A DNA stretch of 64,000 nucleotides, from NCBI GenBank assembly GCA_032718475.1, contig JAUCBJ010001598.1, forward strand, positions 1 to 64,000. Reading direction: 5' to 3'. This stretch comes from Nemertoderma westbladi. Taxonomy: Eukaryota; Animalia; Xenacoelomorpha. The notes beneath the pieces are model-generated. The model was not told where the DNA came from. It worked only from the letters and a program-made list of their open reading frames with translations, and ran no database searches. Shown here piece by piece: positions 20,016 to 64,000 of the stretch (the first letter of the stretch is position 1; each line of letters begins with the position of its first letter). Made by a program: the position numbers and the translations under genes.

Positions 20016-20174
20016 TCACTTGGTAAACCGTTGGACATTCTTATATTCCAGGAAGTCGTTTATTGTTTCTGCACATCTGTTAGCGTTTTGTGTTTTGGCA
20101 TCTTGCAGAGAGGCGAAAAAGTCCTGTACCTCTTCGGAATGCTTTTTGTGTTGTTTCAGTCCGTATTCAAAAAG
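20016..20174 (-). pseudogene. DRC3: Exon of dynein regulatory complex subunit 3 (DRC3/LRRC48), probably a partial or pseudogenic copy
   Basis: Minus-strand acceptor ttttccctttag| followed by LFEYGLKQHKKHSEEVQDFFASLQDAKTQNANRCAETINDFLEYK, resembling human DRC3 IFEYGLKQQEKRKTELDTFSECVREAIQEN as recalled. No strong donor; runs to a TGA. Not in the ORF track. Confidence 0.7.
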
Positions 20175-20268
20175 CTAAAGGGAAAATTGTAATTAAACTT
20201 TCCTACAAGAATCAGATGTGCGTATTTCATACCTTGGCAAAAGAACTTACTGTGACTTACTTACTTAC

Positions 20269-21036
20269 GGTTAACTTACTGTACGTGTAAAGGGTTAACT
20301 TACTGTACGTGTAAATGGTTAACTTACTGTACGTGTAAAGGGTTAACTTACTGTACGTGTAAAGGGTTAGTGTAAAGGGTTAACTTACTGTACGTGTAAA
20401 GGGTTAACTTACTGTACGTGTAAAGGGCTAACTTACTGTACGTGTAAAGGGTTAACTTACTGTACGTGTAAAGGGTTAACTTACTGTACGTGTAAAGGGT
20501 TAACTTACTGTACGTGTAAAGGGTTAACTTACTGTACGTGTAAAGGGTTAACTTACTGTACGTGTAAAGGGCTAACTTACTGTACGTGTAAAGGGTTAAC
20601 TTACTGTACGTGTAAAGGGTTAACTTACTGTACGTGCAAAGGGTTAACTTACTGTACGTGTAAAGGCTTAACTTACTGTACGTGTAAAGGGTTAACTTAC
20701 TGTACTTGTAAAGGGTTAACTTACTGTACGTGTAAAGGGTTAACTTACTGTACGTGTAAAGGGTTAACTTACTGTACGTGTAAAGGGTTAACTTACTGTA
20801 CGTGTAAAGGGTTAACTTACTGTACGTGTAAAGGGTTAACTTACTGTACGTGTAAAGGGCTAACTTACTGTAGGTGTAAAGGGTTAACATACTGTACGTG
20901 TAAAGGATTAACTTACTGTACGTGTAAAGGGTTAACTTACTGTACGTGTAAAGGGCTAACTTACTGTACGTGTAAAGGGTTAACTTACTGTACGTGTAAA
21001 GGGTTAACTTACTGTACGTGTAAAGGGTTAACTTAC
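20269..21036. repeat. 24-bp minisatellite (gggttaacttactgtacgtgtaaa, about 32 copies)
   Basis: Period 24 is directly visible. The minus strand reads CA|GTAAGT once per unit. Confidence 0.97.
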
Positions 21037-21204
21037 AGGCGGCAATGTGAATGAAAATGTCGGAGTTACAATCTTGATACAGAATTAAGTAAAATGATTT
21101 ACTGAATTTAAGTACTTGTGTAGGCCTATAGATACTAGATTACTTCTTGAATTTCTTCTCTTTGAACGCCTCCATTGGTTCCTCCCTACCTGTATAGATA
21201 TCCT

Positions 21205-22061
21205 AGTACTACTAGGATTGGTATGATGCATTGCAACTGCATTTTCAAGAATGCTGTGCCGGCCTGCCGACAAAATCGCGCCGCCACAACTCCCTATCAC
21301 CCATGACATTTGCTAGATCGTCCGCATCTTCAAGGCCAGTTTCCTTGAAGATGCGTCGCAAGAAAGTCATGGGCTGTCCACCATGCTTACTCACTCCATG
21401 AGGCCGCCGAAGCACAATATTATGCACTGGCTGGTCCTCACGGCGAAAACAATGTCCTGCAAAGCGGAGGCGACTTTGTTCTAGTGTCAAGCTTGGGGGA
21501 ACCAATGCGACACCTCCAATGTTATATAGTGTCTGGTTGGAGATGTGTGCAATGCACTTGACACAGTGAACCCGACGTAGCATTCTTGTGAATGTGCCAT
21601 CCAGAGATTTGGTGTCCTCAGCAGTTAGAGCCCAGCATGGCCTCCCATAGAGGAGTACAGGAACTACTGGTGCTCTAAATAATCGGATCTTAAGTTTCCG
21701 ATTAATTCTCTGTGACTTCCAAATCCTGGAAAGCCTTTTCAAAGCTGCCCGGCCATGCCTTTCCCTTACGTATTCGAAAGTGAATATGGGTATGCTGACT
21801 TCCGGATCCATGATCCCAGGTAACATAAGTCGTCCACATGCTCAAGCATACCATCATTTGAGCTTATGCTCATCCGGGCAGAGACTTGCTGAGAACTTTC
21901 AAAGTTAACTGTCAAAATGTTGGTCTTATTGGAGTTAATAAAAAGACCCACACTACAGTAGAAGCAGCTTGTTCTAATGAGCTGAGGAGCCTTTGGGCTA
22001 CCTCTAGTGATTCTGAGAGTACTCCTAAGTCATCAGCAAAGTCTAGATCAGTTAGGTACTT
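21205..22061 (-). mobile_element. 5'-truncated RTE-clade LINE fragment (RT C-terminus and 3' end), degraded
   Basis: YLTDLDFADD, CYLGSWI and RLRFAGHCFRR motifs. Paralogous to 25150-25990. (TAG)n tail at about 21205-21215. Contains frameshifts. Confidence 0.9.
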
Positions 22062-24512
22062 TATCCTTATACACGTTTCTTTGACCTCCTCCAATGGTTC
22101 CTCCCTACCGGTAAAGATATACTAGTACAAATTTCTTTGACCTCCTCTAGTGGTTCCTCCTTACCGGTATAGATATACTAGTACACTTTTCTTTGAATCC
22201 TCCAGTGGTTCCTCCCTACCTGTATAGATATACTAGTACACTTTTCTTTGAAGGCCTCCAGTGGTTCCTCCATGCCTGTATAGATATTCTAGTACACTTT
22301 TCTTTGACCTCCTCCAGTGGTTCCTCCCTACCTGTATAGATATACTAGTACACTTTTCTTTGACCTCCTCCAGTGGTTCCTCCGTACCTGTATACAGTAG
22401 ATATACTAGTACACTTTTCTTTGACCTCCTCCAGTGGTTCCTCCCTACCTGTATAGATATACTAGTACACTGTTCTTTGACCTCCTCCAGTGGTTCCTCC
22501 CTACCTGTATAGATATACTAGTACACTTTTCTTTGACCTCCTCCAGTGGTTACTCCCTACCTGTATAGATATACTAGTACACTTTTCTTTGACCTCCTCC
22601 AGTGGTTCCTCCCTACCTGTATAGATATACTAGTACACTTTTCTTTGACCTCCTCCAGTGGTTCCTCCGTACCTGTATACAGTAGATATACTAGTACACT
22701 TTTCTTTGACCTCCTCCAGTGGTTCCTCCCTACCTGTATAGATATACTAGTACACTTTTCTTTGACCTCCTCCAGTGGTCCCTCCCTACCTGTATAGATA
22801 TACTAGTACACTTTTCTTTGACCTCCTCCAGTGGTTCCTCCCTACCTGTATAGATATACTAGTACACTTTTCTTTGACCTCCTCCAGTGGTTCCTCCCTA
22901 CCTGTATAGATATACTAGTACACTTTTCTTTGAAGGCCTCCAGTGGTTCCTCCCTACCTGTATAGATATACTAGTACACTTTTCTTTGAACTCCTCCAGT
23001 GGTTCCTCCCTACCTATATAGATATACTAGTACACTTTTCTTTGACCTCCTCCAGTGGTTCCTCAGTACCTGTATACAGTAGATATACTAGTACACTTTT
23101 CTTTGACCTCCTCCAGTGGTTCCTCCCTACCTGTATAGATATACTAGTACACTTTTCTTTGACCTCCTCCAGTGGTTCCTCCCTACCTGTATAGATATAC
23201 TAGTACACTTTTCTTTGAATCCTCCAGTGGTTCCTCCCTACCTGTATAGATATACTAGTACACTTTTCTTTGAAGGTCTCCAGTGGTTCCTTCCTACCTG
23301 TATAGATATACTAGTACACTTTTCTTTGAAGGTCTCCAGTGGTTCCTCCCTACCTGTATAGATGTACTAGTACACTTTTCTTTGAATCCTCCAGTGGTTC
23401 CTCCCTACCTGTATAGATATACTAGTACACTTTTCTTTGAAGGTCTCCAGTGGTTCCTCCCTACCTGTATAGATGTACTAGTACACTTTTCTTTGACCTC
23501 CTCCAGTGGTTCCTCCCTACCGGTATAGATAGATATACTAGTACACTTTTCTTTGAAGGCCTCCAGTGGTTCCTCCCTACTTGTATAGATATACTAGTAC
23601 ACTTTTCTTTGACCTCCTCCAGTGGTTCCTCCCTACCTGTATAGATATACTAGTACACTTTTCTTTGAATCCTCCAGTGGTTCCTCCCTACCTGTATAGA
23701 TATACTAGTACACTTTTCTTTGAAGGTCTCCAGTGGTTCCTCCCTACCTGTATAGATATACTAGTACACTTTTCTTTGACCTCCTCCAGTGGTTCCTCCC
23801 TACCTGTATAGATATACTAGTAGACTTTTCTTTGAATCCTCCAGTGGTTCCTCCCTACCTGTATAGATATACTAGTACACTTTTCTTTGAAGGTCTCCAG
23901 TGGTTCCTCCCTACCTGTATAGATGTACTAGTACACTTTTCTTTGACCTCCTCCAGTGGTTCCTCCCTACCTGTATAGATATACTAGTACACTTTTCTTT
24001 GACCTCCTCCAGTGGTTCCTCCCTACCTGTATAGATATACTAGTACACTTTTCTTTGAATCCTCCAGTGGTTCCTCCCTACCTGTATAGATATACTAGTA
24101 CACTTTTCTTTGAAGGCCTCCAGTGGTTCCTCGATGCCTGTATAGATATACTAGTACACTTTTCTTTGAAGGCCTCCAGTGGTTCCTCCCTACCTGTATA
24201 GATATACTAGTACACTTTTCTTTGAATCCTCCAGTGGTTCCTCCCTAGCTGTATAGATATACTAGTACACTTTTCTTTGACCTCCTCCAGTGGTTCCTCC
24301 CTACCTGTATAGATATACTAGTACACTTTTCTTTGACCTCCTCCAGTGGTTCCTCCCTACCTGTATAGATATACTAGTACACTTTTCTTTGAATCCTCCA
24401 GTGGTTCCTCCCTACCTGTATAGATATACTAGTACACTTTTCTTTGAAGGCCTCCAGTGGTTCCTCCATGCCTGTATAGATATACTAGTACACTTTTCTT
24501 TGACCTCCTCCA

Positions 24513-25991
24513 TAGATAGATTCTACCGAACAACAAGAGTCCCACAAGAAATGAAAACAAATAAGTTGGTACCAGTTCCCAAGAAGGGCAACCTAACACT
24601 CTATGGTTCTTTTCGGGGAATCTCATTGATCTCGATTGCTGCAAAGCTATACAATAGGATTCTATTAAATCGCATCAGGGATCCCATTGAGAGACTGCTC
24701 CGTGGAAATCAGAATGGGTTCCGTAAAGGTCGTGGGACCATGGAGCCCATTTTGGCACTTAGAAGGATAATTGAAGAGTTATCAAAAAAGAAAGACAGGC
24801 ATCTGGCTGTTATCTTTGTTGACTTCTTCAAGGCCTTTGATTCAGTCTCTCGCTTACGTATGTTCAGCGTACTTTCATTATATGGGATTCCAGATGAAAT
24901 TATTGCAGCAATCAGATCAGTATACGATGGTTCGACAACATTTGTGTCTACTGTTGACGGTGATCCGTCAAGTATCCGGTGACAGAACCATTTGAAGTGT
25001 TATGGGGCGTCCTCCAAGGAGACACACTTGCACCATTCTTGTTCATTATTGTGGTTGACTATGTTCTACGCATGTCTTTAGATCATTATAATGATGATGG
25101 GGTGATGATAACTCCACCTACTGGCTCCAGAAGTCGAGGAAATCCTGCCAAGTACCTAACTGATCTAGACTTTGCTGATGACTTAGGAGTACTCTCAGAA
25201 TCATTAGAGGGAGCCCAACGGCTCCTCAGCTCATTAGAACATGCTGCTTCTAGTGTTGGTCTTTTTATTAACTCCAGAAAGACCAAAATTCTGACAGTTA
25301 ACTTTGAAAGTCCTCAGCAAGTCTCTGATCGGATGAGCATAAGCTCAAAGGATGGTATGCTTGAGCATGTGGACGACTTCTGTTACCTGGGATCATGGAT
25401 CCGGAAGTCAGGTGAGGACCTTCGAATACGTAAGGGAAAGGCATGGGCAGCCTTGAATAGGCTTTCCAGGATTTGGAAGTCACCGAGAATTAATCGGAAA
25501 CTTAAGGTCCGATTATTTAGAGCAGCAGTAGTTCCAGTACTCCTCTACGGGAGTCCATGCTGGGCTCTAACTGCTGAGGACACCAAATCTCTGGATGGCA
25601 CATTCACAAGAATGCTACGCCGGGTTCATTGTGTCAAGTACAATGCACACATCTCCAACCAGACACTATATAACATTGGAGGTGTCTCATTGGTTCCCCC
25701 AAGCTTGATACTAGAACAAAATCGCCTCCGCTTTGCAGGACATTGCTTTCGCCGTGAGGACCAGCCAGTGCATAATCTTGTACTTTGGCAGCCTCATGGA
25801 GTGAATAAGCATGGTGGACAGCCCATGACTTTCTTGAGACGCATCTTAAAGGACACTGGCCTTAAAGATGCGGATGATCTAGCAAATGTCATGGGTGATA
25901 GGGAGTTGTGGCGGTGCAATTTTGTTGACAAGCCGGCACAGCATTCTTAAAAATGCAGCTGCAATGCAGCATGCCGATCCTAGTAGTAGTA
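24513..25991 (+). mobile_element. 5'-truncated RTE-clade LINE inserted in the satellite, 11-bp TSD
   Basis: RT motifs VPVPKKG, RGISL, QNGFRKGRGT, FVDFFKAFDSV, GVLQGDTLAP, FADD. Frameshift at about 24979. (TAG)n tail. GACCTCCTCCA at 24502-24512 and 25992-26002. Confidence 0.93.
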
Positions 25992-28900
25992 GACCTCCTC
26001 CAGTGGTTCCTCCCTACCTGTATAGATATACTAGTACACTTTTCTTTGAACTCCTCCAGTGGTTCCTCCCTATCGGTATAGATATACTAGTACACTTTTC
26101 TTTGAACTCCTCCAGTGGTTCCTTCCTACCTGTATAGATATACTAGTACACTTTTCTTTGACCTCCTCCAGTGGTTTCTCCCTACCTGTATAGATATACT
26201 AGTACACTTTTCTTTGAACTCCTCCAGTGGTTCCTCCCTACCTGTATAGATATACTAGTACACTTTTCTTTGACCTCCTCCAGTGGTTCCTCCCTACCTG
26301 TATAGATATACTAGTACACTTTTCTTTGAACTCCTCCAGTGGTTCCTCCCTACCTGTATAGATATACTAGTACACTTTTCTTTGAAAGTCTCCAGTGGTT
26401 CCTCCCTACCTGTATAGATATACTTGTACAATTTTCTTTGTAGGTCTCCAGTGGTTCCTCCCTACCTGTATAGATATACTAGTACACTTTTCTTTGAAGG
26501 CCTCCAGTGGTTCCTTCCTACCTGTATAGATATACTAGTACACTTTTCTTTGAACTCCTCCAGTGGTTCCTCCCTACCTGTATAGATATACTAGTACACT
26601 TTTCTTTGAAAGTCTCCAGTGGTTCCTCCCTACCTGTATAGATATACTTGTACAATTTTCTTTGTAGGTCTCCAGTGGTTCCTCCCTACCTGTATAGATA
26701 TACTAGTACACTTTTCTTTGAAGGCCTCCAGTGGTTCCTCCCTACCTGTATAGATATACTAGTACACTTTTCTTTGAAGGCCTCCAGTGGTTCCTCCCTA
26801 CCTATATATATATATACTAGCACACTTTTCTTTGAAGGTCTCCAGTGGTTCCTTCCTACCTGTATAGATAGTAAACTTTTCTTTGACCTCCTCCAGTGGT
26901 TCCTCCCTACCTGTATAGATATACTAGTACACTTTTCTTTGAAGGCCTCCAGTGGTTCCTCCCTGCCTGTATAGATATACTAGTACACTTTCCTTTGACC
27001 GCCTCCAGTGGTTCCTTCCTACCTGTATAGCTAGTACACTTTTCTTTGACCTCCTCCAGTGGTTCCCCCCTACCTGTATAGATATACTAGTACACTTTTC
27101 TTTGAAGGCCTCCAGTGGTTCCTCCCTACCTGTATAGATAGATATACTAGTACACTTTTCTTTGAAGGCCTCCAGTGGTTCCTCAAGATATACTAGTACA
27201 CGTCTCTTTGAAGGCCTGCAGTGGTTCCTCCCTACCGTATATATATACTAGTACACTTTTCTTTGAAAGCCTCCGCAGTGGTTCCATCCTACCTGTATAT
27301 CTAGTACACTTTTCTTTAAACTCCTCCAATGGTTCCTCCCTATCTGTATAGATAGATATACTAGTACACTCCTCCAGCGGTTCCTCCCTACCTGTATAAT
27401 ACTAGTACACTTTTCTTTGACCTCCTACAGTGGTTCCTCCCTACCTGTATAGATATACTAGTACACTTTTCTTTGAACTCCTCCAGTGGTTCCTCCCTAC
27501 CGGTATAGATATACTAGTACACTTTTCTTTGACCTCCTCCAGTGGTTCCTTCCTACCTGTATAGATAGTACACTTTTCTTTCAAGGCCTCCAGTGGTTCC
27601 TCCCTACCTGTATAGATAGATATACTAGTACACTTTTCTTTGACCTCCTCCAGTGGTCTCTCCCTACCTGTATAGATAGATATACTAGTAAACTTTTCTT
27701 TGAACTCCTCCAGTGGTTCCTCCCTACCTGTATAGATATACTAGTACACTTTTCTTTGAACTCCTCCTGTGTAGTTCCTCCCTACCTGTATAGATACTAG
27801 TACACTTTTCTTTGAAGGTCTCCAGTGGTTCCTTCCTACCTGTATATATATACTAGTACACTTTTCTTTGACCTCCTCCAGTGGTTCCTCCCTACCTGTT
27901 CTTTGAAGGCCTCCAGTGGTTCCTCCCTACCTGTATAGATATACTAGTACACTTTTCTTTGAACTCCTCCAGTGGTTCCTCCCTATCGGTATAGATATAC
28001 TAGTAAACTTTTCTTTGAAGGTCTCCAGTGGTTCCTTCCTACCTGTATAGATATACTAGTACACTTTTCTTTGAACTCCTCCAGTGGTTCCTCCCTACCT
28101 GTATAGATATACTAGTACACTTTTATTTGAAGGTCTCCAGTGGTTCCTTCCTACCTGTATAGATATACTAGTACACTTTTCTTTGAACTCCTCCAGTGGT
28201 TCCTCCCTACCTGTATAGATATACTAGTACACTTTTCTTTGACCTCCTCCAGTGGTTCCTTCCTACCTGTATAGATAGATATACTAGTACACTTTTCTTT
28301 GACCTCCTCCAGTGGTCTCTCCCTACCTGTATAGATAGATATACTAGTACACTTTTCTTTGAAGGCCTCCAGTGGTTCCTCCCTACCTGTATAGATAGAT
28401 ATACTAGTACACTTTTCTTTGAAGGCCTCCAGTGGTTCCTCAAGATATACTAGTACACGTCTCTTTGAAGGCCTGCAGTGGTTCCTCCCTACCGTATATA
28501 TATACTAGTACACTTTTCTTTGAAAGCCTCCGCAGTGGTTCCATCCTACCTGTATATCTAGTACACTTTTCTTTAAACTCCTCCAATGGTTCCTCCCAAT
28601 CTGTATAGATAGATATACTAGTACACTCCTCCAGCGGTTCCTCCCTACCTGTATAATACTAGTACACTTTTCTTTGACCTCCTACAGTGGTTCCTCCCTA
28701 CCTGTATAGATATACTAGTACACTTTTCTTTGAACTCCTCCAGTGGTTCCTCCCTACCGGTATAGATATACTAGTACACTTTTCTTTGACCTCCTCCAGT
28801 GGTTCCTTCCTACCTGTATAGATAGTACACTTTTCTTTCAAGGCCTCCAGTGGTTCCTCCCTACCTGTATAGATAGATATACTAGTACACTTTTCTTTGA

Positions 28901-31900
28901 CCTCCTCCAGTGGTCTCTCCCTACCTGTATAGATAGATATACTAGTAAACTTTTCTTTGAACTCCTCCAGTGGTTCCTCCCTACCTGTATAGATATACTA
29001 GTACACTTTTCTTTGAACTCCTCCTGTGTAGTTCCTCCCTACCTGTATAGATACTAGTACACTTTTCTTTGAAGGTCTCCAGTGGTTCCTTCCTACCTGT
29101 ATATATATACTAGTACACTTTTCTTTGACCTCCTCCAGTGGTTCCTCCCTACCTGTTCTTTGAAGGCCTCCAGTGGTTCCTCCCTACCTGTATAGATATA
29201 CTAGTACACTTTTCTTTGAACTCCTCCAGTGGTTCCTCCCTATCGGTATAGATATACTAGTACACTTTTCTTTGAAGGTCTCCAGTGGTTCCTTCCTACC
29301 TGTATAGATATACTAGTACACTTTTCTTTGAACTCCTCCAGTGGTTCCTCCCTACCTGTATAGATATACTAGTACACTTTTATTTGAAGGTCTCCAGTGG
29401 TTCCTTCCTACCTGTATAGATATACTAGTACACTTTTCTTTGAACTCCTCCAGTGGTTCCTCCCTACCTGTATAGATATACTAGTACACTTTTCTTTGAC
29501 CTCCTCCAGTGGTTCCTTCCTACCTGTATAGATAGATATACTAGTACACTTTTCTTTGACCTCCTCCAGTGGTCTCTCCCTACCTGTATAGATAGATATA
29601 CTAGTACACTTTTCTTTGAAGGCCTCCAGTGGTTCCTCCCTACCTGTATAGATAGATATACTAGTACACTTTTCTTTGAAGGCCTCCAGTGGTTCCTCAA
29701 GATATACTAGTACACGTCTCTTTGAAGGCCTGCAGTGGTTCCTCCCTACCGTATATATATACTAGTACACTTTTCTTTGAAAGCCTCCGCAGTGGTTCCA
29801 TCCTACCTGTATATCTAGTACACTTTTCTTTAAACTCCTCCAATGGTTCCTCCCTATCTGTATAGATAGATATACTAGTACACTCCTCCAGCGGTTCCTC
29901 CCTACCTGTATAATACTAGTACACTTTTCTTTGACCTCCTACAGTGGTTCCTCCCTACCTGTATAGATATACTAGTACACTTTTCTTTGAACTCCTCCAG
30001 TGGTTCCTCCCTACCGGTATAGATATACTAGTACACTTTTCTTTGACCTCCTCCAGTGGTTCCTTCCTACCTGTATAGATAGTACACTTTTCTTTCAAGG
30101 CCTCCAGTGGTTCCTCCCTACCTGTATAGAAAGATATACTAGTACACTTTTCTTTGACCTCCTCCAGTGGTCTCTCCCTACCTGTATAGATAGATATACT
30201 AGTAAACTTTTCTTTGAACTCCTCCAGTGGTTCCTCCCTACCTGTATAGATATACTAGTACACTTTTCTTTGAACTCCTCCTGTGTAGTTCCTCCCTACC
30301 TGTATAGATACTAGTACACTTTTCTTTGAAGGTCTCCAGTGGTTCCTTCCTACCTGTATATATATACTAGTACACTTTTCTTTGACCTCCTCCAGTGGTT
30401 CCTCCCTACCTGTTCTTTGAAGGCCTCCAGTGGTTCCTCCCTACCTGTATAGATATACTAGTACACTTTTCTTTGAACTCCTCCAGTGGTTCCTCCCTAT
30501 CGGTATAGATATACTAGTACACTTTTCTTTGAAGGTCTCCAGTGGTTCCTTCCTACCTGTATAGATATACTAGTACACTTTTCTTTGAACTCCTCCAGTG
30601 GTTCCTCCCTACCTGCATAGATATACTAGTACACTTTTATTTGAAGGTCTCCAGTGGTTCCTTCCTACCTGTATAGATATACTAGTACACTTTTCTTTGA
30701 ACTCCTCCAGTGGTTCCTCCCTACCTGTATAGATATACTAGTACACTTTTCTTTGACCTCCTCCAGTGGTTCCTTCCTACCTGTATAGATAGATATACTA
30801 GTACACTTTTCTTTGACCTCCTCCAGTGGTCTCTCCCTACCTGTATAGATAGATATACTAGTACACTTTTCTTTGAAGGCCTCCAGTGGTTCCTCCCTAC
30901 CTGTATAGATAGATATACTAGTACACTTTTCTTTGAAGGCCTCCAGTGGTTCCTCAAGATATACTAGTACACGTCTCTTTGAAGGCCTGCAGTGGTTCCT
31001 CCCTACCGTATATATATACTAGTACACTTTTCTTTGAAAGCCTCCGCAGTGGTTCCATCCTACCTGTATATCTAGTACACTTTTCTTTAAACTCCTCCAA
31101 TGGTTCCTCCCTATCTGTATAGATAGATATACTAGTACACTCCTCCAGCGGTTCCTCCCTACCTGTATAATACTAGTACACTTTTCTTTGACCTCCTACA
31201 GTGGTTCCTCCCTACCTGTATAGATATACTAGTACACTTTTCTTTGAACTCCTCCAGTGGTTCCTCCCTACCGGTATAGATATACTAGTACACTTTTCTT
31301 TGACCTCCTCCAGTGGTTCCTTCCTACCTGTATAGATAGTACACTTTTCTTTCAAGGCCTCCAGTGGTTCCTCCCTACCTGTATAGATAGATATACTAGT
31401 ACACTTTTCTTTGACCTCCTCCAGTGGTCTCTCCCTACCTGTATAGATAGATATACTAGTAAACTTTTCTTTGAACTCCTCCAGTGGTTCCTCCCTACCT
31501 GTATAGATATACTAGTACACTTTTCTTTGAACTCCTCCTGTGTAGTTCCTCCCTACCTGTATAGATACTAGTACACTTTTCTTTGAAGGTCTCCAGTGGT
31601 TCCTTCCTACCTGTATATATATACTAGTACACTTTTCTTTGACCTCCTCCAGTGGTTCCTCCCTACCTGTTCTTTGAAGGCCTCCAGTGGTTCCTCCCTA
31701 CCTGTATAGATATACTAGTACACTTTTCTTTGAACTCCTCCAGTGGTTCCTCCCTATCGGTATAGATATACTAGTACACTTTTCTTTGAAGGTCTCCAGT
31801 GGTTCCTTCCTACCTGTATAGATATACTAGTACACTTTTCTTTGAACTCCTCCAGTGGTTCCTCCCTACCTGTATAGATATACTAGCACACTTTTATTTG

Positions 31901-37900: not shown

Positions 37901-38138
37901 TTTGACCTCCTCCAGTGGTTCCTCAAGATATACTAGTACACTTTTCTTTGAACTCCTCAAGTGATTCCTCCCTACCTGGATAGATACTACTGTTACTGTA
38001 GTACACTTTTCTTTGAATACTCCCCCAGTGGTTCCTCCCTACCTGTATAGATACTACATGTAGTACACTTTTCTTTGAAGGACTCCAGTGGTTCCTCCCT
38101 ACCTGTATAATACTAGTACACTTTTCTTGGAAGACCTC

Positions 38139-38574
38139 TGTAACAGGCTGAGATAACTCCCCACCAAATATGATTCCCCAGTCTTCTCAGCCTAGGCTGA
38201 GAACACTCCCCAGTTGTCTCCCTATATTTCTCAATTAACGGAAAGAAGCAGGTTACATATTGGCGGGCTTTTCTAACCAAAACAATAAACGATAACTCAA
38301 TAACATAGGTTACAGTTTTATTTTTGCTATATACGAAAATAACACAGGTACGGATATGAATAATAACTCAATTAGGGGAGTCATCTCAGCCTAAGGGGAG
38401 TCATCTCAGCCTAAGGGGAGTCATCTCAGCCTAAGCTAAGGTAGTGTTCTCAGCCTAGGCTGAGATAATTGGGGAGTGTTCTCAGCTTAGGCTGAGATAA
38501 CTGGGGAGTGTTCTCAGCCTAGGCTGAGATGACTGGGTAGTCATTTCAAGAGGGAGTTTTCTCAGCCTTGTACA
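38139..38574. mobile_element. Non-autonomous TIR element with TGT...ACA ends and 4-bp TSD (Ginger-like)
   Basis: tgtaacaggctgagataactcc versus the reverse complement of ggagttttctcagccttgtaca. CCTC at 38135-38138 and 38575-38578. Internal ctcagcctaggctgag palindromes. Internal segment is related to about 10480-10560. Confidence 0.7.
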
Positions 38575-38597
38575 CCTCCAGTGGCTCCTCCCTATAC

Positions 38598-38695
38598 CTG
38601 TATAGATATACTACAATGTAGTACACTTTTCTTTGAAGGCCCCCCCCCCCCAGAAGTGGTTCCCCCATGCCTGGTAACTGGTTGAATTTCCTCCC
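38598..38695 (-). pseudogene. DRC3: DRC3/LRRC48 exon remnant, founder copy of the 56-bp satellite
   Basis: Minus strand reads GRKFNQLPGMGEPL[poly-G]AFKEKCT[7-nt insert]SISIQ|gt, matching human DRC3 GNNLSYLPGVGELLETYKDKFVIICVN as recalled. The phase-0 donor fits the acceptor at 20175. Net +17 nt frameshift as assembled. Confidence 0.65.
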
Positions 38696-46333: not shown

Positions 46334-46587
46334 AAATGAGTCACCAGTTGAACGAGACTCGATCGCAACGCGTCCGTGCGGCGATGTTCCCCGAGACTAT
46401 GGGCGAGGTAACGGGGATCCCGTCTACTCAGTTTGACCCGGCTCATCCCACCGCCGTACAACGCCTCAGCGAGCCCTCACAGATGCTCAAACACGCCGTC
46501 ATTAACCTGATTAACTACCAGGACGACGCAGATCTCGCTACCCGCTGCATACCGGAGCTCACTAGACTGCTCAATGATGAGGACCAG
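46334..46587 (+). CDS. CTNNB1: Beta-catenin exon (alpha-catenin-binding region, start of ARM1)
   Basis: [14 protein letters not shown]...[47 protein letters not shown]. Acceptor tttatag|, donor CAG|GT. Confidence 0.96.
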
Positions 46588-48571: not shown

Positions 48572-48810
48572 GTCGTGGTGAGCCAGGCTGCTAACATGGT
48601 GCACCAGATATCCAAAAAGGACGCATCTCGTCACGCCATATCGAATTCGCCCCAGATGGTCGCCGCTGTTATTAATGCGATGCACAACACGAACGACGCG
48701 GAGACCACCCGCTGCGCTGCAGGCACACTCCACGAGCTGAGTAAACAGCAGACCGGGCTGCTACAGATATTTAAGAGCGGAGGAATTCCAGCCCTCGTCA
48801 AGCTACTGGG
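48572..48810 (+). CDS. CTNNB1: Beta-catenin exon (ARM repeats 1-3)
   Basis: [32 protein letters not shown]...AAGTLHELS...[18 protein letters not shown]. Phase-2 donor GG|GTTAGT. Confidence 0.96.
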
Positions 48811-49163
48811 GTTAGTTGCGTTCCTAGGCAAATTTAAATTTAGTACCGGTAATATTTGTTTTATTTTAGAGAGAAAAATATAAAAAATCTGGCTCGGAAA
48901 TCTCATTTACTTTTATCTTGTATAACCACATCAGTTAGCTGACATTAGATATTGGTTCGGGGCAGATCGTCTTCATTATTTCACAATTTAAAATATATGA
49001 AGTTGGTAAAAACCGCACATGTTTGGACGGACATGGGGGGGGGGGGGGGGGGGGGGTGTCTGAAAATCCGAAATTTTCTCTAACGACCTTTATGGACGAC
49101 CCCTTGCACTTTTGTGCATATTTTATTTCTCAGACACCAAATAACTGACTACTACTATCTATT

Positions 49164-52100: not shown

Positions 52101-55100
52101 TTTGTTTCCCAGACACCCCGTTGAGTCTGTACTATTCTACGCTATCATTTGTTTCCCAGGTACCCCGTTGAGTCTGTACTATTCTACGCTATCATTTGTT
52201 TCCCAGGCACCCCGTTGAGTCTGTACTATTCTACGCTATCATTTGTTTCCCAGGTACCCCGTTGAGTCTGTACTATTCTACGCTATCATTTGTTTCCCAG
52301 GTACCCCGTTGAGTCTGTACTATTCTACGCTATCATTTGTTTCCCAGACACCCCGTTGAGTCTGTACTATTCTACGCTATCATTTGTTTCCCAGGTACCC
52401 CGTTGAGTCTGTACTATTCTACGCTATCATTTGTTTCCCAGGCACCCTGTTGAGTCTACTATTCTACGCTATCATTTGTTTCCCAGGCACCCCGTTGAGT
52501 CTGTACTATTCTACATTATCATTTGTTTCCCAGGCACCCCGTTGAGTCTGTACTATTCTACGCTATCATTTGTTTCCCAGACACCCCGTTGAGTCTGTAC
52601 TATTCTACGCTATCATTTGTTTCCCAGACACCCCGTTGAGTCTGTACTATTCTACGCTATCATTTGTTTCCCAGACACCCCGTTGAGTCTGTACTATTCT
52701 ACGCTATCATTTGTTTCCCAGACACCCCGTTGAGTCTGTACTATTATACGCTATCATTTGTTTCCCAGGCACCCTGTTGAGTCTACTATTCTACGCTATC
52801 ATTTGTTTCTCAGGCACCCCGTTGAGTCTGTACTATTCTACGCTATCATTTGTTTCCCAGGCACCCCGTTGAGTCTGTACTATTATACGCTATCATTTGT
52901 TTCCCAGGCACCCCGTTGAGTCTACTATTCTACGCTATCATTTGTTTCCCATGCACCCCGTTGAGTCTACTATTCTACGCTATCATTTGTTTCCCAGACA
53001 CCCCGTTGAGTCTGTACTATTATACGCTATCATTTGTTTCCCAGGCACCCTGTTGAGTCTACTATTCTACGCTATCATTTGTTTCCCAGGCACCCCGTTG
53101 AGTCTGTACTATTCTACATTATCATTTGTTTCCCAGGCACCCCGTTGAGTCTGTACTATTCTACGCTATCATTTGTTTCCCAGGCACCCTGTTGAGTCTG
53201 TACTATTCTACGTTATCATTTTTTTCCCAGGCACCCTGTTGAGTCTGTCTGTACTATTCTACGCTATCATTTCTTTCCCAGGCACCCTGTTGAGTCTGTA
53301 CTATTCTACGCTATTATTTGTTTCCCAGGCACCCCGTTGCGTCTGTCTGTACTATTCTACGCTACCATTTGTTTCCCAGGCACCCCGTTGAGTCTACAAT
53401 TCTACGCTATCATTTGTTTCCCATGCACCCCGTTGAGTCTGCCTGTACTATTCTACGCTATCATTTGTTTCCCAGGCACCCTGTTGAGTCTGTACTATTC
53501 TACGCTATCATTTGTTTCCCAGGCACCCCGTTGAGTCTGTCTGTACTATTCTACGCTACCATTTGTTTCCCAGGCACCCCGTTGAGTCTGTACTATTCTA
53601 CGCTACCATTTGTTTCCCAGGCACCCCGTTGAGTCTGTACTATTCTACGCTATCATTTGTTTCCCAGGCACCCCGTTGAGTCTGTACTATTCTACGCTAT
53701 CATTTGTTTCCCAGGCACCCCGTTGAGTCTGTCTGTACTATTCTACGCTATCATTTGTTTCCCAGGCACCCTGTTGAGTCTGTCTGTACTATTCTACGCT
53801 ATCATTTGTTTCCCAGGCACCCTGTTGAGTCTGTCTGTACTATTCTACGCTATCATTTGTTTCCCAGGCACCCCGTTGAGTCTGTACTATTCTACGCTAT
53901 CATTTGTTTCCCAGGCACCCCGTTGAGTCTGTCTGTACTATTCTACGCTATCATTTGTTTCCCAGGCACCCCGTTGAGTCTGTCTGTACTATTCTACGCT
54001 ATCATTTGTTTCCCAGGCACCCTGTTGAGTCTGTCTGTACTATTCTACGCTATCATTTGTTTCCCAGGCACCCCGTTGAGTCTGTACTATTCTACGCTAT
54101 CATTTGTTTCCCAGGCACCCCGTTGAGTCTGTACTATTCTACGCTATCATTTGTTTCCCAGGCACCCCGTTGAGTCTACAATTCTACGCTATCATTTGTT
54201 TCCCAGACACCCCGTTGAGTCTACAATTCTACGCTATCATTTGTTTCCCAGGCACCCCGTTGAGTCTGTCTGTACTATTCTACGCTATCATTTGTTTCCC
54301 AGGCACCCTGTTGAGTCTGTCTGTACTATTCTACGCTATCATTTGTTTCCCAGGCACCCCGTTGAGTCTGTACTATTCTACGCTATCATTTGTTTCCCAG
54401 GCACCCCGTTGAGTCTGTACTATTCTACGCTATCATTTGTTTCCCAGGCACCCCGTTGAGTCTGTACTATTCTACGCTATCATTTGTTTCCCAGGCACCC
54501 CGTTGAGTCTGTACTATTCTACGCTATCATTTGTTTCCCAGGCACCCCGTTGAGTCTGTCTGTACTATTCTACGCTATCATTTGTTTCCCAGGCACCCTG
54601 TTGAGTCTGTCTGTACTATTCTACGCTATCATTTGTTTCCCAGGCACCCCGTTGAGTCTGTACTATTCTACGCTATTATTTGTTTCCCAGGCACCCCGTT
54701 GAGTCTGTACTATTCTACGCTATCATTTGTTTCCCAGGCACCCCGTTGAGTCTACAATTCTACGCTATCATTTGTTTCCCAGACACCCCGTTGAGTCTAC
54801 AATTCTACGCTATCATTTGTTTCCCAGGCACCCCGTTGAGTCTGTCTGTACTATTCTACGCTATCATTTGTTTCCCAGGCACCCCGTTGAGTCTGTACTA
54901 TTCTACGCTATCACTTGTTTCCCAGGCACCCCGTTGAGTCTGTACTATTCTACGCTATCATTTGTTTCCCAGGCACCCCGTTGAGTCTGTACTATTCTAC
55001 GCTATCATTTGTTTCCCAGGCACCCCGTTGAGTCTGTACTATTCTACGCTATCATTTGTTTCCCAGGCACCCCGTTGAGTCTGTACTATTCTACGTTAGC

Positions 55101-58100
55101 ATTTGTTTCCCAGGCACCCCGTTGAGTCTGTACTATTCTACGCTATCATTTGTTTCCCAGGCACCCCGTTGAGTCTGTACTATTCTACGCTATCATTTGT
55201 TTCCCAGGCACCCCGTTGAGTCTGTACTATTCTACGTTAGCATTTGTTTCCCAGGCACCCCGTTGAGTCTGTACTATTCTACGCTATCATTTGTTTCCCA
55301 GGCACCCCGTTGAGTCTGTACTATTCTACGCTATCATTTGTTTCCCAGGCACCCCGTTGAGTCTGTACTATTCTACGTTAGCATTTGTTTCCCAGGCACC
55401 CCGTTGAGTCTGTACTATTCTACGCTATCATTTGTTTCCCAGGCACCCCGTTGAGTCTGTACTATTCTACGCTATCATTTGTTTCCCAGGTACCCCGTTG
55501 AGTCTGTACTATTCTACGCTATCATTTGTTTCCCAGACACCCCGTTGAGTCTGTACTATTCTACGCTATCATTTGTTTCCCAGGCACCCCGTTGAGTCTG
55601 TACTATTCTACGCTATCATTTGTTTCCCAGGCACCCCGTTGAGTCTACAATTCTACGCTATCATTTGTTTCCCAGGCACCCCGTTGAGTCTGCCTGTACT
55701 ATTCTACGCTATCATTTGTTTCCCAGGCACCCTGTTGAGTCTGTACTATTCTACGCTATCATTTGTTTCCCAGGCACCCCGTTGAGTCTGTCTGTACTAT
55801 TCTACGCTATCATTTGTTTCCCAGGCACCCCGTTGAGTCTGTACTATTCTACGCTATCATTTGTTTCCCAGGCACCCCGTTGAGTCTACAATTCTACGCT
55901 ATCATTTGTTTCCCAGGCACCCCGTTGAGTCTGTACTATTCTACATTATCATTTGTTTCCCAGGCACCCCGTTGAGTCTACTATTCTACATTATCATTTG
56001 TTTCCCAGGCACCCCGTTGAGTCTGTACTATTCTACGCTATCATTTGTTTCCCAGGCACCCCGTTGAGTCTGTACTATTCTACGCTATCCTTTGTTTCCC
56101 AGACACCCCGTTGAGTCTGTACTATTCTACGCTATCATTTGTTTCCCATGCACCCCGTTGAGTCTACAATTATACGCTATCATTTGTTTCCCAGGCACCC
56201 TGTTGAGTCTGTCTGTACTATTCTACGCTATCATTTGTTTCCCAGACACCCCGTTGAGTCTGTACTATTCTACGCTATCCTTTGTTTCCCAGACACCCCG
56301 TTGAGTCTGTACTATTCTACGCTATCATTTGTTTCCCATGCACCCCGTTGAGTCTACTATTCTACGCTATCATTTGTTTCCCAGGCACTCCGTTGAGTCT
56401 GTACTATTCTACGCTGTCATTTGTTTCCCAGGCACGCCGTTGAGTCTGTACTATTCTACGCTATCATTTGTTTCCCAGGCACCCCGTTGAGTCTGTACTA
56501 TTCTACGCTATCATTTGTTTCCCAGGCACCCTGTTGAGTCTGTCTGTACTATTCTACGCTACCATTTGTTTCCCAGGCACCCCGTTGAGTCTACAATTCT
56601 ACGCTATCATTTGTTTCCCAGGCACCCCGTTGAGTCTGTACTATTCTACATTATCATTTGTTTCCCAGGCACCCCGTTGAGTCTACTATTCTACATTATC
56701 ATTTGTTTCCCAGGCACTCCGTTGAGTCTGTCTGTACTATTCTACGCTATCATTTGTTTCCCAGGCACCCTGTTGAGTCTGTCTGTACTATTCTACGCTA
56801 CCATTTGTTTCCCAGGCACCCCGTTGAGTCTACAATTCTACGCTATCATTTGTTTCCCAGGCACCCCGTTGAGTCTGTACTATTCTACATTATCATTTGT
56901 TTCCCAGGCACCCCGTTGAGTCTACTATTCTACGCTAGCATTTGTTTCCCAGACACCCCGTTGAGTCTGTACTATTCTACGCTATCCTTTGTTTCCCAGA
57001 CACCCCGTTGAGTCTGTACTATTCTACGCTATCATTTGTTTCCCATGCACCCCGTTGAGTCTACTATTCTACGCTATCATTTGTTTCCCAGGCACTCCGT
57101 TGAGTCTGTACTATTCTACGCTGTCATTTGTTTCCCAGGCACGCCGTTGAGTCTGTACTATTCTACGCTATCATTTGTTTCCCAGGCACCCTGTTGAGTC
57201 TGTCTGTACTATTCTACGCTACCATTTGTTTCCCAGGTACCCCGTTGAGTCTGTACTATTCTACGCTATCATTTGTTTCCCAGGCACTCCGTTGCGTCTA
57301 CTATTCTACGCTATCATTTGTTTCCCAGGCACCCTGTTGAGTCTGTACTATTCTACGCTATCATTTGTTTCCCAGACACCCCGTTGAGTCTGTACTATTC
57401 TACGCTATCATTTGTTTCCCAGGCACTCCGTTGAGTCTACTATTCTACGCTATCATTTGTTTCCCAGGCACCCCGTTGAGTCTACTATTCTACGCTATAA
57501 TTTGTTTCCCAGGCACCCCGTTGAGTCTACTATTCTACGCTATCATTTGTTTCCCAGGCACCCCGTTGAGTCTGTACTATTCTACGCTAGCATTTGTTTC
57601 CCAGGCACCCCGTTGAGTCTACTATTCTACGCTATCATTTGTTTCCCAGGCACTCCGTTGAGTCTGTACTATTCTACGCTATCATTTGTTTCCCAGGCAC
57701 CCCGTTGAGTCTGTACTATTCTACGCTATCATTTGTTTCCCAGGCACCCCGTTGAGTCTACTATTCTACGCTATCATTTGTTTCCCAGGCACCCCGTTGA
57801 GTCTGTACTATTCTACGCTAGCATTTGTTTCCCAGGCACCCCGTTGAGTCTACTATTCTACGCTATCATTTGTTTCCCAGGCACTCCGTTGAGTCTGTAC
57901 TATTCTACGCTGTCATTTGTTTCCCAGGCACGCCGTTGAGTCTGTACTATTCTACGCTATCATTTGTTTCCCAGGCACCCTGTTGAGTCTGTCTGTACTA
58001 TTCTACGCTACCATTTGTTTCCCAGGTACCCCGTTGAGTCTGTACTATTCTACGCTATCATTTGTTTCCCAGGCACTCCGTTGCGTCTACTATTCTACGC

Positions 58101-61100
58101 TATCATTTGTTTCCCAGGCACCCTGTTGAGTCTGTACTATTCTACGCTATCATTTGTTTCCCAGACACCCCGTTGAGTCTGTACTATTCTACGCTATCAT
58201 TTGTTTCCCAGGCACCCCGTTGAGTCTACTATTCTACGCTATCATTTGTTTCCCAGGCACCCTGTTGAGTCTACTATTCTACGCTATCATTTGTTTCCCA
58301 GGCACCCCGTTGAGTCTGTACTATTCTACGCTATCATTTGTTTCCCAGACACCCCGTTGAGTCTGTACTATTCTACGCTATCATTTGTTTCCCAGGTACC
58401 CCGTTGAGTCTGTACTATTCTACGCTATCATTTGTTTCCCAGGCACCCCGTTGAGTCTGTACTATTCTACGCTATCATTTGTTTCCCAGGTACCCCGTTG
58501 AGTCTGTACTATTCTACGCTATCATTTGTTTCCCAGGTACCCCGTTGAGTCTGTACTATTCTACGCTATCATTTGTTTCCCAGACACCCCGTTGAGTCTG
58601 TACTATTCTACGCTATCATTTGTTTCCCAGGTACCCCGTTGAGTCTGTACTATTCTACGCTATCATTTGTTTCCCAGGCACCCTGTTGAGTCTACTATTC
58701 TACGCTATCATTTGTTTCCCAGGCACCCCGTTGAGTCTGTACTATTCTACATTATCATTTGTTTCCCAGGCACCCCGTTGAGTCTGTACTATTCTACGCT
58801 ATCATTTGTTTCCCAGACACCCCGTTGAGTCTGTACTATTCTACGCTATCATTTGTTTCCCAGACACCCCGTTGAGTCTGTACTATTATACGCTATCATT
58901 TGTTTCCCAGGCACCCTGTTGAGTCTACTATTCTACGCTATCATTTGTTTCCCAGGCACCCCGTTGAGTCTGTACTATTCTACGCTATCATTTGTTTCCC
59001 AGACACCCCGTTGAGTCTGTACTATTATACGCTATCATTTGTTTCCCAGGCACCCTGTTGAGTCTACTATTCTACGCTATCATTTGTTTCTCAGGCACCC
59101 CGTTGAGTCTGTACTATTCTACGCTATCATTTGTTTCCCAGGCACCCCGTTGAGTCTGTACTATTATACGCTATCATTTGTTTCCCAGGCACCCCGTTGA
59201 GTCTACTATTCTACGCTATCATTTGTTTCCCATGCACCCCGTTGAGTCTACTATTCTACGCTATCATTTGTTTCCCAGACACCCCGTTGAGTCTGTACTA
59301 TTATACGCTATCATTTGTTTCCCAGGCACCCTGTTGAGTCTACTATTCTACGCTATCATTTGTTTCCCAGGCACCCCGTTGAGTCTGTACTATTCTACAT
59401 TATCATTTGTTTCCCAGGCACCCCGTTGAGTCTGTACTATTCTACGCTATCATTTGTTTCCCAGGCACCCTGTTGAGTCTGTACTATTCTACGTTATCAT
59501 TTTTTTCCCAGGCACCCTGTTGAGTCTGTCTGTACTATTCTACGCTATCATTTCTTTCCCAGGCACCCTGTTGAGTCTGTACTATTCTACGCTATTATTT
59601 GTTTCCCAGGCACCCCGTTGCGTCTGTCTGTACTATTCTACGCTACCATTTGTTTCCCAGGCACCCCGTTGAGTCTACAATTCTACGCTATCATTTGTTT
59701 CCCATGCACCCCGTTGAGTCTGCCTGTACTATTCTACGCTATCATTTGTTTCCCAGGCACCCTGTTGAGTCTGTACTATTCTACGCTATCATTTGTTTCC
59801 CAGGCACCCCGTTGAGTCTGTCTGTACTATTCTACGCTACCATTTGTTTCCCAGGCACCCCGTTGAGTCTGTACTATTCTACGCTACCATTTGTTTCCCA
59901 GGCACCCCGTTGAGTCTGTACTATTCTACGCTATCATTTGTTTCCCAGGCACCCCGTTGAGTCTGTACTATTCTACGCTATCATTTGTTTCCCAGGCACC
60001 CCGTTGAGTCTGTCTGTACTATTCTACGCTATCATTTGTTTCCCAGGCACCCTGTTGAGTCTGTCTGTACTATTCTACGCTATCATTTGTTTCCCAGGCA
60101 CCCTGTTGAGTCTGTCTGTACTATTCTACGCTATCATTTGTTTCCCAGGCACCCCGTTGAGTCTGTACTATTCTACGCTATCATTTGTTTCCCAGGCACC
60201 CCGTTGAGTCTGTCTGTACTATTCTACGCTATCATTTGTTTCCCAGGCACCCCGTTGAGTCTGTCTGTACTATTCTACGCTATCATTTGTTTCCCAGGCA
60301 CCCTGTTGAGTCTGTCTGTACTATTCTACGCTATCATTTGTTTCCCAGGCACCCCGTTGAGTCTGTACTATTCTACGCTATCATTTGTTTCCCAGGCACC
60401 CCGTTGAGTCTGTACTATTCTACGCTATCATTTGTTTCCCAGGCACCCCGTTGAGTCTACAATTCTACGCTATCATTTGTTTCCCAGACACCCCGTTGAG
60501 TCTACAATTCTACGCTATCATTTGTTTCCCAGGCACCCCGTTGAGTCTGTCTGTACTATTCTACGCTATCATTTGTTTCCCAGGCACCCTGTTGAGTCTG
60601 TCTGTACTATTCTACGCTATCATTTGTTTCCCAGGCACCCCGTTGAGTCTGTACTATTCTACGCTATCATTTGTTTCCCAGGCACCCCGTTGAGTCTGTA
60701 CTATTCTACGCTATCATTTGTTTCCCAGGCACCCCGTTGAGTCTGTACTATTCTACGCTATCATTTGTTTCCCAGGCACCCCGTTGAGTCTGTACTATTC
60801 TACGCTATCATTTGTTTCCCAGGCACCCCGTTGAGTCTGTCTGTACTATTCTACGCTATCATTTGTTTCCCAGGCACCCTGTTGAGTCTGTCTGTACTAT
60901 TCTACGCTATCATTTGTTTCCCAGGCACCCCGTTGAGTCTGTACTATTCTACGCTATTATTTGTTTCCCAGGCACCCCGTTGAGTCTGTACTATTCTACG
61001 CTATCATTTGTTTCCCAGGCACCCCGTTGAGTCTACAATTCTACGCTATCATTTGTTTCCCAGACACCCCGTTGAGTCTACAATTCTACGCTATCATTTG

Positions 61101-64000
61101 TTTCCCAGGCACCCCGTTGAGTCTGTCTGTACTATTCTACGCTATCATTTGTTTCCCAGGCACCCCGTTGAGTCTGTACTATTCTACGCTATCACTTGTT
61201 TCCCAGGCACCCCGTTGAGTCTGTACTATTCTACGCTATCATTTGTTTCCCAGGCACCCCGTTGAGTCTGTACTATTCTACGCTATCATTTGTTTCCCAG
61301 GCACCCCGTTGAGTCTGTACTATTCTACGCTATCATTTGTTTCCCAGGCACCCCGTTGAGTCTGTACTATTCTACGTTAGCATTTGTTTCCCAGGCACCC
61401 CGTTGAGTCTGTACTATTCTACGCTATCATTTGTTTCCCAGGCACCCCGTTGAGTCTGTACTATTCTACGCTATCATTTGTTTCCCAGGCACCCCGTTGA
61501 GTCTGTACTATTCTACGTTAGCATTTGTTTCCCAGGCACCCCGTTGAGTCTGTACTATTCTACGCTATCATTTGTTTCCCAGGCACCCCGTTGAGTCTGT
61601 ACTATTCTACGCTATCATTTGTTTCCCAGGCACCCCGTTGAGTCTGTACTATTCTACGTTAGCATTTGTTTCCCAGGCACCCCGTTGAGTCTGTACTATT
61701 CTACGCTATCATTTGTTTCCCAGGCACCCCGTTGAGTCTGTACTATTCTACGCTATCATTTGTTTCCCAGGTACCCCGTTGAGTCTGTACTATTCTACGC
61801 TATCATTTGTTTCCCAGACACCCCGTTGAGTCTGTACTATTCTACGCTATCATTTGTTTCCCAGGCACCCCGTTGAGTCTGTACTATTCTACGCTATCAT
61901 TTGTTTCCCAGGCACCCCGTTGAGTCTACAATTCTACGCTATCATTTGTTTCCCAGGCACCCCGTTGAGTCTGCCTGTACTATTCTACGCTATCATTTGT
62001 TTCCCAGGCACCCTGTTGAGTCTGTACTATTCTACGCTATCATTTGTTTCCCAGGCACCCCGTTGAGTCTGTCTGTACTATTCTACGCTATCATTTGTTT
62101 CCCAGGCACCCCGTTGAGTCTGTACTATTCTACGCTATCATTTGTTTCCCAGGCACCCCGTTGAGTCTACAATTCTACGCTATCATTTGTTTCCCAGGCA
62201 CCCCGTTGAGTCTGTACTATTCTACATTATCATTTGTTTCCCAGGCACCCCGTTGAGTCTACTATTCTACATTATCATTTGTTTCCCAGGCACCCCGTTG
62301 AGTCTGTACTATTCTACGCTATCATTTGTTTCCCAGGCACCCCGTTGAGTCTGTACTATTCTACGCTATCCTTTGTTTCCCAGACACCCCGTTGAGTCTG
62401 TACTATTCTACGCTATCATTTGTTTCCCATGCACCCCGTTGAGTCTACAATTATACGCTATCATTTGTTTCCCAGGCACCCTGTTGAGTCTGTCTGTACT
62501 ATTCTACGCTATCATTTGTTTCCCAGACACCCCGTTGAGTCTGTACTATTCTACGCTATCCTTTGTTTCCCAGACACCCCGTTGAGTCTGTACTATTCTA
62601 CGCTATCATTTGTTTCCCATGCACCCCGTTGAGTCTACTATTCTACGCTATCATTTGTTTCCCAGGCACTCCGTTGAGTCTGTACTATTCTACGCTGTCA
62701 TTTGTTTCCCAGGCACGCCGTTGAGTCTGTACTATTCTACGCTATCATTTGTTTCCCAGGCACCCCGTTGAGTCTGTACTATTCTACGCTATCATTTGTT
62801 TCCCAGGCACCCTGTTGAGTCTGTCTGTACTATTCTACGCTACCATTTGTTTCCCAGGCACCCCGTTGAGTCTACAATTCTACGCTATCATTTGTTTCCC
62901 AGGCACCCCGTTGAGTCTGTACTATTCTACATTATCATTTGTTTCCCAGGCACCCCGTTGAGTCTACTATTCTACATTATCATTTGTTTCCCAGGCACTC
63001 CGTTGAGTCTGTCTGTACTATTCTACGCTATCATTTGTTTCCCAGGCACCCTGTTGAGTCTGTCTGTACTATTCTACGCTACCATTTGTTTCCCAGGCAC
63101 CCCGTTGAGTCTACAATTCTACGCTATCATTTGTTTCCCAGGCACCCCGTTGAGTCTGTACTATTCTACATTATCATTTGTTTCCCAGGCACCCCGTTGA
63201 GTCTACTATTCTACGCTAGCATTTGTTTCCCAGACACCCCGTTGAGTCTGTACTATTCTACGCTATCCTTTGTTTCCCAGACACCCCGTTGAGTCTGTAC
63301 TATTCTACGCTATCATTTGTTTCCCATGCACCCCGTTGAGTCTACTATTCTACGCTATCATTTGTTTCCCAGGCACTCCGTTGAGTCTGTACTATTCTAC
63401 GCTGTCATTTGTTTCCCAGGCACGCCGTTGAGTCTGTACTATTCTACGCTATCATTTGTTTCCCAGGCACCCTGTTGAGTCTGTCTGTACTATTCTACGC
63501 TACCATTTGTTTCCCAGGTACCCCGTTGAGTCTGTACTATTCTACGCTATCATTTGTTTCCCAGGCACTCCGTTGCGTCTACTATTCTACGCTATCATTT
63601 GTTTCCCAGGCACCCTGTTGAGTCTGTACTATTCTACGCTATCATTTGTTTCCCAGACACCCCGTTGAGTCTGTACTATTCTACGCTATCATTTGTTTCC
63701 CAGGCACTCCGTTGAGTCTACTATTCTACGCTATCATTTGTTTCCCAGGCACCCCGTTGAGTCTACTATTCTACGCTATAATTTGTTTCCCAGGCACCCC
63801 GTTGAGTCTACTATTCTACGCTATCATTTGTTTCCCAGGCACCCCGTTGAGTCTGTACTATTCTACGCTAGCATTTGTTTCCCAGGCACCCCGTTGAGTC
63901 TACTATTCTACGCTATCATTTGTTTCCCAGGCACTCCGTTGAGTCTGTACTATTCTACGCTATCATTTGTTTCCCAGGCACCCCGTTGAGTCTGTACTAT
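49164..64000 (+). repeat. 47-bp satellite (about 315 units in the window, continues past the end): 3' splice site plus first 34 nt of the next beta-catenin exon
   Basis: Unit atttgtttcccag|G CAC CCC GTT GAG TCT GTA CTA TTC TAC GCT ATC encodes (G)HPVESVLFYAI, continuing [11 protein letters not shown] as in beta-catenin GSPVDSVLFYAITTLHNL. 45- and 51-bp variants occur. Higher-order periods are 182 bp and about 6.28 kb. Confidence 0.96.

Follow-up and report, generated by a model that had tools for sequence, protein, structure and literature searches.

Junction-spanning minisatellites of the mirage kind at beta-catenin, DRC3 and TTC7 in Nemertoderma westbladi

Introduction

Tandem repeats whose units lie across exon-intron boundaries have been described in amphioxus as mirages, on both the donor and the acceptor side, in the genes for Adh3, the globins BflGb6 and BflGb9, troponin C and PGBD5 (available text of PMC3087553 and PMC3902484). 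The same text proposes that mirages may be general in cephalochordates and may provide a route to intron gain, and it reports normal splicing to be undisturbed by them. In humans, donor-spanning VNTRs are listed in the available text of PMC1557585 for F7 IVS7 (37 bp, 5-9 copies), 6-16, CBS, lamin B2 and PDGF; in F7 the most upstream donor alone is used. The VNTR in intron 18 of ABCA7 has 25-bp units and alleles of up to 10,678 bp, equivalent to about 427 donor units, and it demonstrates that such arrays can alter splicing (available text of PMC5954066). The accessible parts of PMC9940879 and PMC10078293 contain nothing on junction-spanning units. Within the literature covered, which consisted of main texts and included few subscription papers, a genome-wide mirage survey and an acceptor-side array as large as the one described below were not found.

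Here we analyse 64,000 nucleotides of DNA (the window) from the intron-bearing animal Nemertoderma westbladi, contig JAUCBJ010001598.1, positions 1-64,000. Besides TTC7 and a small unnamed gene, the window takes in the 5' part of beta-catenin and, on the minus strand, a piece of DRC3. Eight arrays have a period of at least 20 and at least 3 copies; three span a splice junction, and the other five do not and are ordinary. Minisatellites in general look abundant in the window. The junction-spanning repeats, including an eroded one in TTC7, are head-to-tail arrays with periods of 47, 50, 56 and about 52 bp, within the 10-160 bp range of mirage units, and by comparison inside the window each unit stays within its own gene region. 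That the units cross real exon-intron boundaries follows from homology and phase for the 50-bp and 47-bp arrays, from a spliced contig for the 56-bp array (whose units include no more than 5 nt of intron), and from frame and Pfam for TTC7. The splice dinucleotide is retained in 9/9 full 50-bp units and 288/315 47-bp units, and 205 of 257 56-bp units read ACAG|GTA.

The arrays are dense, very large members of a kind that has already been described, and it is their size that stands out. The original prediction had regarded them as an undescribed general system, which does not hold, since mirages in amphioxus have been proposed as possibly general (PMC3087553, available text). As in amphioxus, both sides of the intron and several genes of one invertebrate are affected, many units carry AG or GT, and the edges are less homogenised. 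Copy numbers in amphioxus are 2-7; here they reach 315 units, over more than 14.8 kb, and the higher-order blocks and LINE insertions seen here are unlike the amphioxus mirages as described in that text. Length instability and normal splicing have been demonstrated for the amphioxus mirages, whereas the beta-catenin arrays are known from sequence. The 50-bp and 56-bp arrays resemble the human donor VNTRs in that the first unit crosses the boundary and the donor is repeated; the human examples given, unlike those here, have 5-25 copies and are all on the donor side, and the F7 unit is mostly intron (4 nt of exon and 33 nt of intron), whereas the units here are mostly exon. In ABCA7, too, every unit opens with a donor GT, and use of the second donor leads to a frameshift, whereas its unit starts at the junction, holds no exon sequence and occurs on the donor side only (PMC5954066, available text).

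The arrays of beta-catenin

Beta-catenin was recognised by a PDB match (E 8e-34) and by tblastn matches; the best full-length matches, from a crinoid, hemichordates and insects, are 83-85% alike, and a word-index protein search with the first beta-catenin exon returned no match. The features of the gene that concern us are:

44100..44335, plus strand: beta-catenin exon encoding the N-terminal phosphodegron region; its last 40 nt are unit 1 of the donor array
44296..44817, plus strand: 50-bp donor array, each unit 40 nt of exon end followed by GTAAGTAAAT; nine donors and a decayed tenth unit
46334..46587, plus strand: beta-catenin exon
48572..48810, plus strand: beta-catenin exon ending …VKLLG, phase 2
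49143..64000, plus strand: 47-bp acceptor array of 315 units, continuing past the window end

The 50-bp unit comprises the last 40 nt of the beta-catenin exon (…TNYGHGYTPQQVD), as placed by tblastn to homologues, and 10 nt of intron. Nine units with G|GTAAGT lie at 44335-44774, followed by the decayed tenth, so that the original prediction of a ten-copy donor array stands as to the junction, by tblastn and phase, with a donor in nine of the ten. In silico, the reading frame stays open from the first donor alone, running through the next two exons collinear with homologues, and all eight later donors lead to a stop at codon 80.

Splicing of the exon on its upstream side is recorded in run X2, which was labelled 'DNA?' but was taken as RNA-like, given that its contigs leave out GT..AG stretches and connect one exon to the next. 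Blanks in X2 (38560-38943, 11 of the 30 bins of 38560-44290, and the gene at 18274-18725) were counted as evidence for nothing. An X2 contig covers exon 44100..44335 and skips the upstream GT..AG stretches 39080-40908 and 41145-44099; the joint across the latter places the acceptor of this exon in use. The two 5' exons, at 39038-41145 on the plus strand, appear as spliced X2 pieces bounded by these two joints, and the first starts about 350 bp from the DRC3 piece described below, head to head with it. Short-read contigs break at the arrays: the X2 contig ends at 44325, 30 nt inside unit 1, as do contigs of X1, X3 and X4, and 44325 is the last 31-letter word having a unique base. The X2 end is a weak hint that the library contained repeat-to-repeat sequence, whether from unspliced RNA, DNA or leaky donors.

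The 47-bp array is an acceptor array. From 49204 to the window end there are 315 units, in agreement with the predicted number of about 315, with CAG at the junction in 288 and CAT in 27. Each unit consists of 12 nt of intron and about 35 nt of coding sequence, (G)HPVESVLFYAI, in a phase that fits the exon ending …VKLLG at 48810. The stretch PVESVLFYAIT matches homologues at 11/11 positions, and SSP[VM]ESVLFY[AT]ITT occurs at the matching place in 96 of the 102 homologues that could be parsed out of 120. At the 5' edge, positions 49143-49176 resemble a decayed 47-bp unit, with 6 of 2000 shuffles scoring equally well. Among 306 parsed units there are 50 distinct types. An exact repeat of 5044 bp occurs at a lag of 6281 inside the array (52676-64000) and reflects either a very recent duplication or a block doubled by the assembly.

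Upstream 47-bp acceptors lead in silico to a stop within 137 codons in 283 of 283 tested (287 were found by motif), so that decoy use produces an early stop codon at this array as at the 50-bp array. No selection keeping or destroying the decoy AGs of the 47-bp array was seen, and a single allele (G>T) accounts for all 27 AG losses. By consensus, CTGAC near 49145 is the best-looking branch point for these acceptors. The last acceptor belongs to a unit beyond the window and lies 14.8 kb or more away from this candidate, a distance that would not be favoured under a simple model of first-AG scanning. Given a correct assembly, splicing of beta-catenin has to pass 288 or more near-identical decoy acceptors, which makes the locus a natural experiment for setting exon definition against first-AG scanning at the 3' splice site.

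The DRC3 array and its LINEs

The third large array lies upstream of beta-catenin, on the opposite strand, in a region with the following features:

20038..20174, minus strand: shortened DRC3 exon (LFEYGLKQ…LEYK), missing the 25 nt and the donor with which the expressed form ends
20269..21036, minus strand: 24-bp array of about 32 copies, not junction-spanning, each unit having GTAAGT on the DRC3 strand
21130..21210, minus strand: decayed distal 56-bp unit
21204..22062, minus strand: second LINE copy, of the same family as the copy at 24513 and 91.5% alike, on the opposite strand
22070..38132 plus outliers, minus strand: 56-bp DRC3 donor array with 1257-bp higher-order units
24513..25993, plus strand: LINE copy (RVT_1) inside the 56-bp array, with an 11-bp direct repeat at its flanks
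38560..38700, minus strand: 5'-most units joined to 14 DRC3-like codons (GRKFNQLPGMGEPL), broken

By motif, 257 units were found in 21120-38700, close to the roughly 260 copies predicted. They are organised into 1257-bp blocks, with 2-3 differences among the four copies compared. The higher-order blocks, the insertion of LINEs into an existing array and the decayed outer edges are observed directly, as are the anatomy and copy numbers of the units here and in beta-catenin. The 24-bp array, which stops 94 nt before the DRC3 acceptor, was considered as a fourth donor array and rejected, as attachment to an exon is absent.

The 56-bp unit codes for (GM)EEPLEAFKEKCTSISIQ and aligns to the DRC3 fragment P0126 with a score of 37, which none of 5000 shuffles reaches; P0126 itself matches the PDB DRC3 at E 1e-13. 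Together with the tblastn homologues of beta-catenin, this alignment bears out the earlier claim that the monomers match the exon ends of the two genes. Used directly against PDB, the 24-aa query from the unit gave no match at E 10 and the exon at 20174 gave a weak match to DRC3 (E 0.005); a word-index protein search with the DRC3 exon found no match. The intron share of the unit is at most 5 nt, GTAGG in place of the exon's GCATG, and three units are wholly exon-like at the same length of 56 nt (CAG|GCATG or GCATC). It had been predicted that all monomers extend into the intron: this is so for the 50-bp and 47-bp units, by 10 and 12 nt, and only for those few nucleotides, or none in three units, at DRC3. 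The 56-bp register pairs CAGGCATGG inside the exon with CAGGTAGGG at the donor, alike at 7 of 9 positions, and slippage between the two would yield both types of unit.

An X2 contig of 2004 nt aligns to 20038-20176 with 2 differences, and at its loose end stands the end of a 56-bp unit. This unit end is joined to the exon at 20174, which shows the predicted junction to be real and spliced; the gene itself, as it stands in the window, is not intact. The contig is normally spliced, from one intact 56-bp unit end unbroken through the next DRC3 exon, but it comes from another form of the gene and departs from the window sequence at 20038.

State of the DRC3 copy

The DRC3 of the window is a broken copy rather than an intact gene whose intron has been inflated. 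Its exon-proximal unit (38620-38700) is disrupted by a run of 12 Gs and a 6-nt insert, and an X4 contig over 38560-38696 confirms the disrupted unit with 0 differences and 0 gaps. The insert is absent from the DRC3 transcript, and a search of the window that tolerated up to 5 errors did not find the 25 nt with which the expressed exon ends. A search of all six frames of the window for the leucine-rich-repeat DRC3 exon gave five motif matches, none of them credible by eye.

Two samples, X1 and X4, contain a second genomic form of DRC3 with 25 extra exon bases and a CAG|GTGAG donor. Both also carry the form of the window (19913-20082, 0 differences), as does X3, with 1 difference over 19913-20250. 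The expressed form and that of the window are 99% alike over the common part of the exon, and in the contigs the intron sequence adjoining the exon is common to the two forms. Contig depths for the two forms are 26 and 26 in X1 and 28 and 23 in X4; although depth is not copy number, these values fit two DRC3 loci, and the form of the window may be a second locus or an allele. At the disrupted unit X1 and X3 differ from the window (38664 C>T), with 27 gaps in X3 over 38627-39238 compared with 13 in X1 over 38655-39238, so another haplotype may lack the G run.

With the DRC3 array lying within a broken copy, inflation of a working intron is not demonstrated at DRC3, and splicing likely no longer constrains the array there. 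Two claims of the original prediction are thereby narrowed. That arrays of more than 10 kb inflate introns is right as to their sizes and does not apply to DRC3; that the exon-proximal copy is the one joined to the rest of the exon holds for the first 50-bp donor, with its open frame, and at DRC3 the copy in question, joined to 14 DRC3-like codons, is disrupted.

The TTC7 acceptor

TTC7 has three exons (Pfam TTC7_N, E 6e-46) and one small repeat at a splice junction:

9312..9435, plus strand: eroded TTC7 acceptor duplication, two units followed by the exon at 9409

In 9312-9408 lie two units, each with an acceptor, directly ahead of the exon; the predicted threefold acceptor repeat is thus an eroded duplication, the exon start standing where a third full copy would be. 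A second stretch, 3392-3994, is an 88% copy of the intron end (8896-9430) with its own decayed acceptor units; at 3959-3994 it retains a 36-nt in-frame remnant of the exon start followed by a weak donor, possibly a pseudo-exon. Across 498-12333, TTC7 is encoded in only three large exons, while its neighbour beta-catenin has short exons and many introns. By eye, a tRNA-like stretch lies at 2666-2737 inside an inverted-repeat element of TTC7 intron 1, and a near-identical tandem duplication of about 470 bp is found downstream of the gene (12822-13750).

Origin and persistence of the arrays

We consider it probable that these mirage minisatellites arose as short local duplications across a splice junction and persist because the exon-proximal site stays joined to a whole exon. 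In such a scheme, slippage or repair at short homology would found the array; the first donor or last acceptor would remain joined to the whole exon, making the change near neutral, and the remainder of the array would leave with the intron. The array could then grow as an ordinary minisatellite, by slippage and unequal exchange, and any leaky decoy products would presumably be cleared by nonsense-mediated decay. Use of the exon-proximal site is inferred at both beta-catenin arrays, and the acceptor case would mirror the donor case of F7. That such duplications survive because splicing removes them, as suggested in the original prediction, is likely for beta-catenin and TTC7.

Another account would have a junction-biased process, through splice-site microhomology or transcription-linked repair, seed duplications well above chance in this lineage. 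Given 18 junctions in collapsed sequence of about 29-33 kb, chance would place about 0.2-0.3 arrays across a junction; three of eight are so placed (binomial P 0.0005-0.002), and four of nine when TTC7 is included (P about 1e-4). These counts were made by the analyst in a window picked for the pattern from some 250,000, so the excess does not speak for a bias across the genome. The register of the 56-bp unit fits CAG|G microhomology, while breakpoint microhomology is not demonstrable for the 50-bp and 47-bp units, and we regard such a bias as unlikely. A related proposal is that the DRC3 intron was itself born by tandem duplication of the last 56 nt of the exon, so that the array made the junction. 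This would be intron gain of the Rogers type, in which a duplication at or across splice-site-like sequence provides the splice signals, and which may fit the DRC3 intron; a new intron is not demonstrated here, and the beta-catenin arrays, unlike that model, sit within introns with ordinary far ends. The three wholly exon-like 56-nt units have AG|G(T) at both ends, and three of three informative homologous fragments (of six; P0124-P0126) are intronless at the site, though they are distant and may have lost the intron. The last 58 nt of the intron run from GT to AG and share 28 of their 58 positions with the unit, a weak match, since with a register set by eye it is equalled by 3.7% of 3002 AG-ending stretches and by 87 of 3000 shuffles. 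The 47-bp and 50-bp units are not exonic units bounded by AG|G(T). The acceptor (TTTCCCTTTAG) is unlike the end of the 56-bp unit, and we find birth of the DRC3 intron by this route doubtful. We would give equally little credence to the combined reading, in which junction satellites arise in this lineage well above chance with their register set by splice-site microhomology, the spliceosome reaches the last of about 290 near-identical acceptors across 15 kb of an essential gene, and the DRC3 intron was created in the same manner.

The very large sizes might also be assembly artefacts in part, with blocks written twice or two loci joined within a satellite. The 5044-bp repeat without a single difference in the 47-bp array and the unequally intact look of the two ends of the DRC3 copy speak for such an error. 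Against this, the 1257-bp blocks differ from each other by 2-3 letters, the 47-bp array is diverse in unit types (the 50 counted above), the flanks equal short-read contigs letter for letter, and 182 of the 47-bp units remain after one 6.3-kb block is dropped; an artefact of this sort appears improbable to us. Finally, the decoy sites might be regulatory, tuning the level of beta-catenin through unproductive splicing. The decoys are largely intact, in the proportions given above for acceptors and donors, array length correlates with mis-splicing in ABCA7 (PMC5954066, available text), and the end of the X2 contig at 44325 hints weakly in the same direction. However, the units are 95-98% alike, such that youth alone predicts intact sites, and the G of the AG ranks fourth of 47 positions for substitution and falls outside the conserved ones. 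A regulatory role for the decoys therefore seems very improbable, and we return to short junction-crossing duplications, retained through their exon-proximal site, as the probable origin of the arrays.

Other features of the window

Two further elements lie between TTC7 and the DRC3 copy. At 13850-17020 on the minus strand is an element of about 3 kb with a long minus-strand reading frame interrupted by several stops and with repeated end motifs, by eye a DNA transposon. At 17501-18725 on the plus strand is a small gene of two exons, one of them cysteine-rich and 150 aa long, with a start resembling a signal peptide; the gene has no Pfam match.
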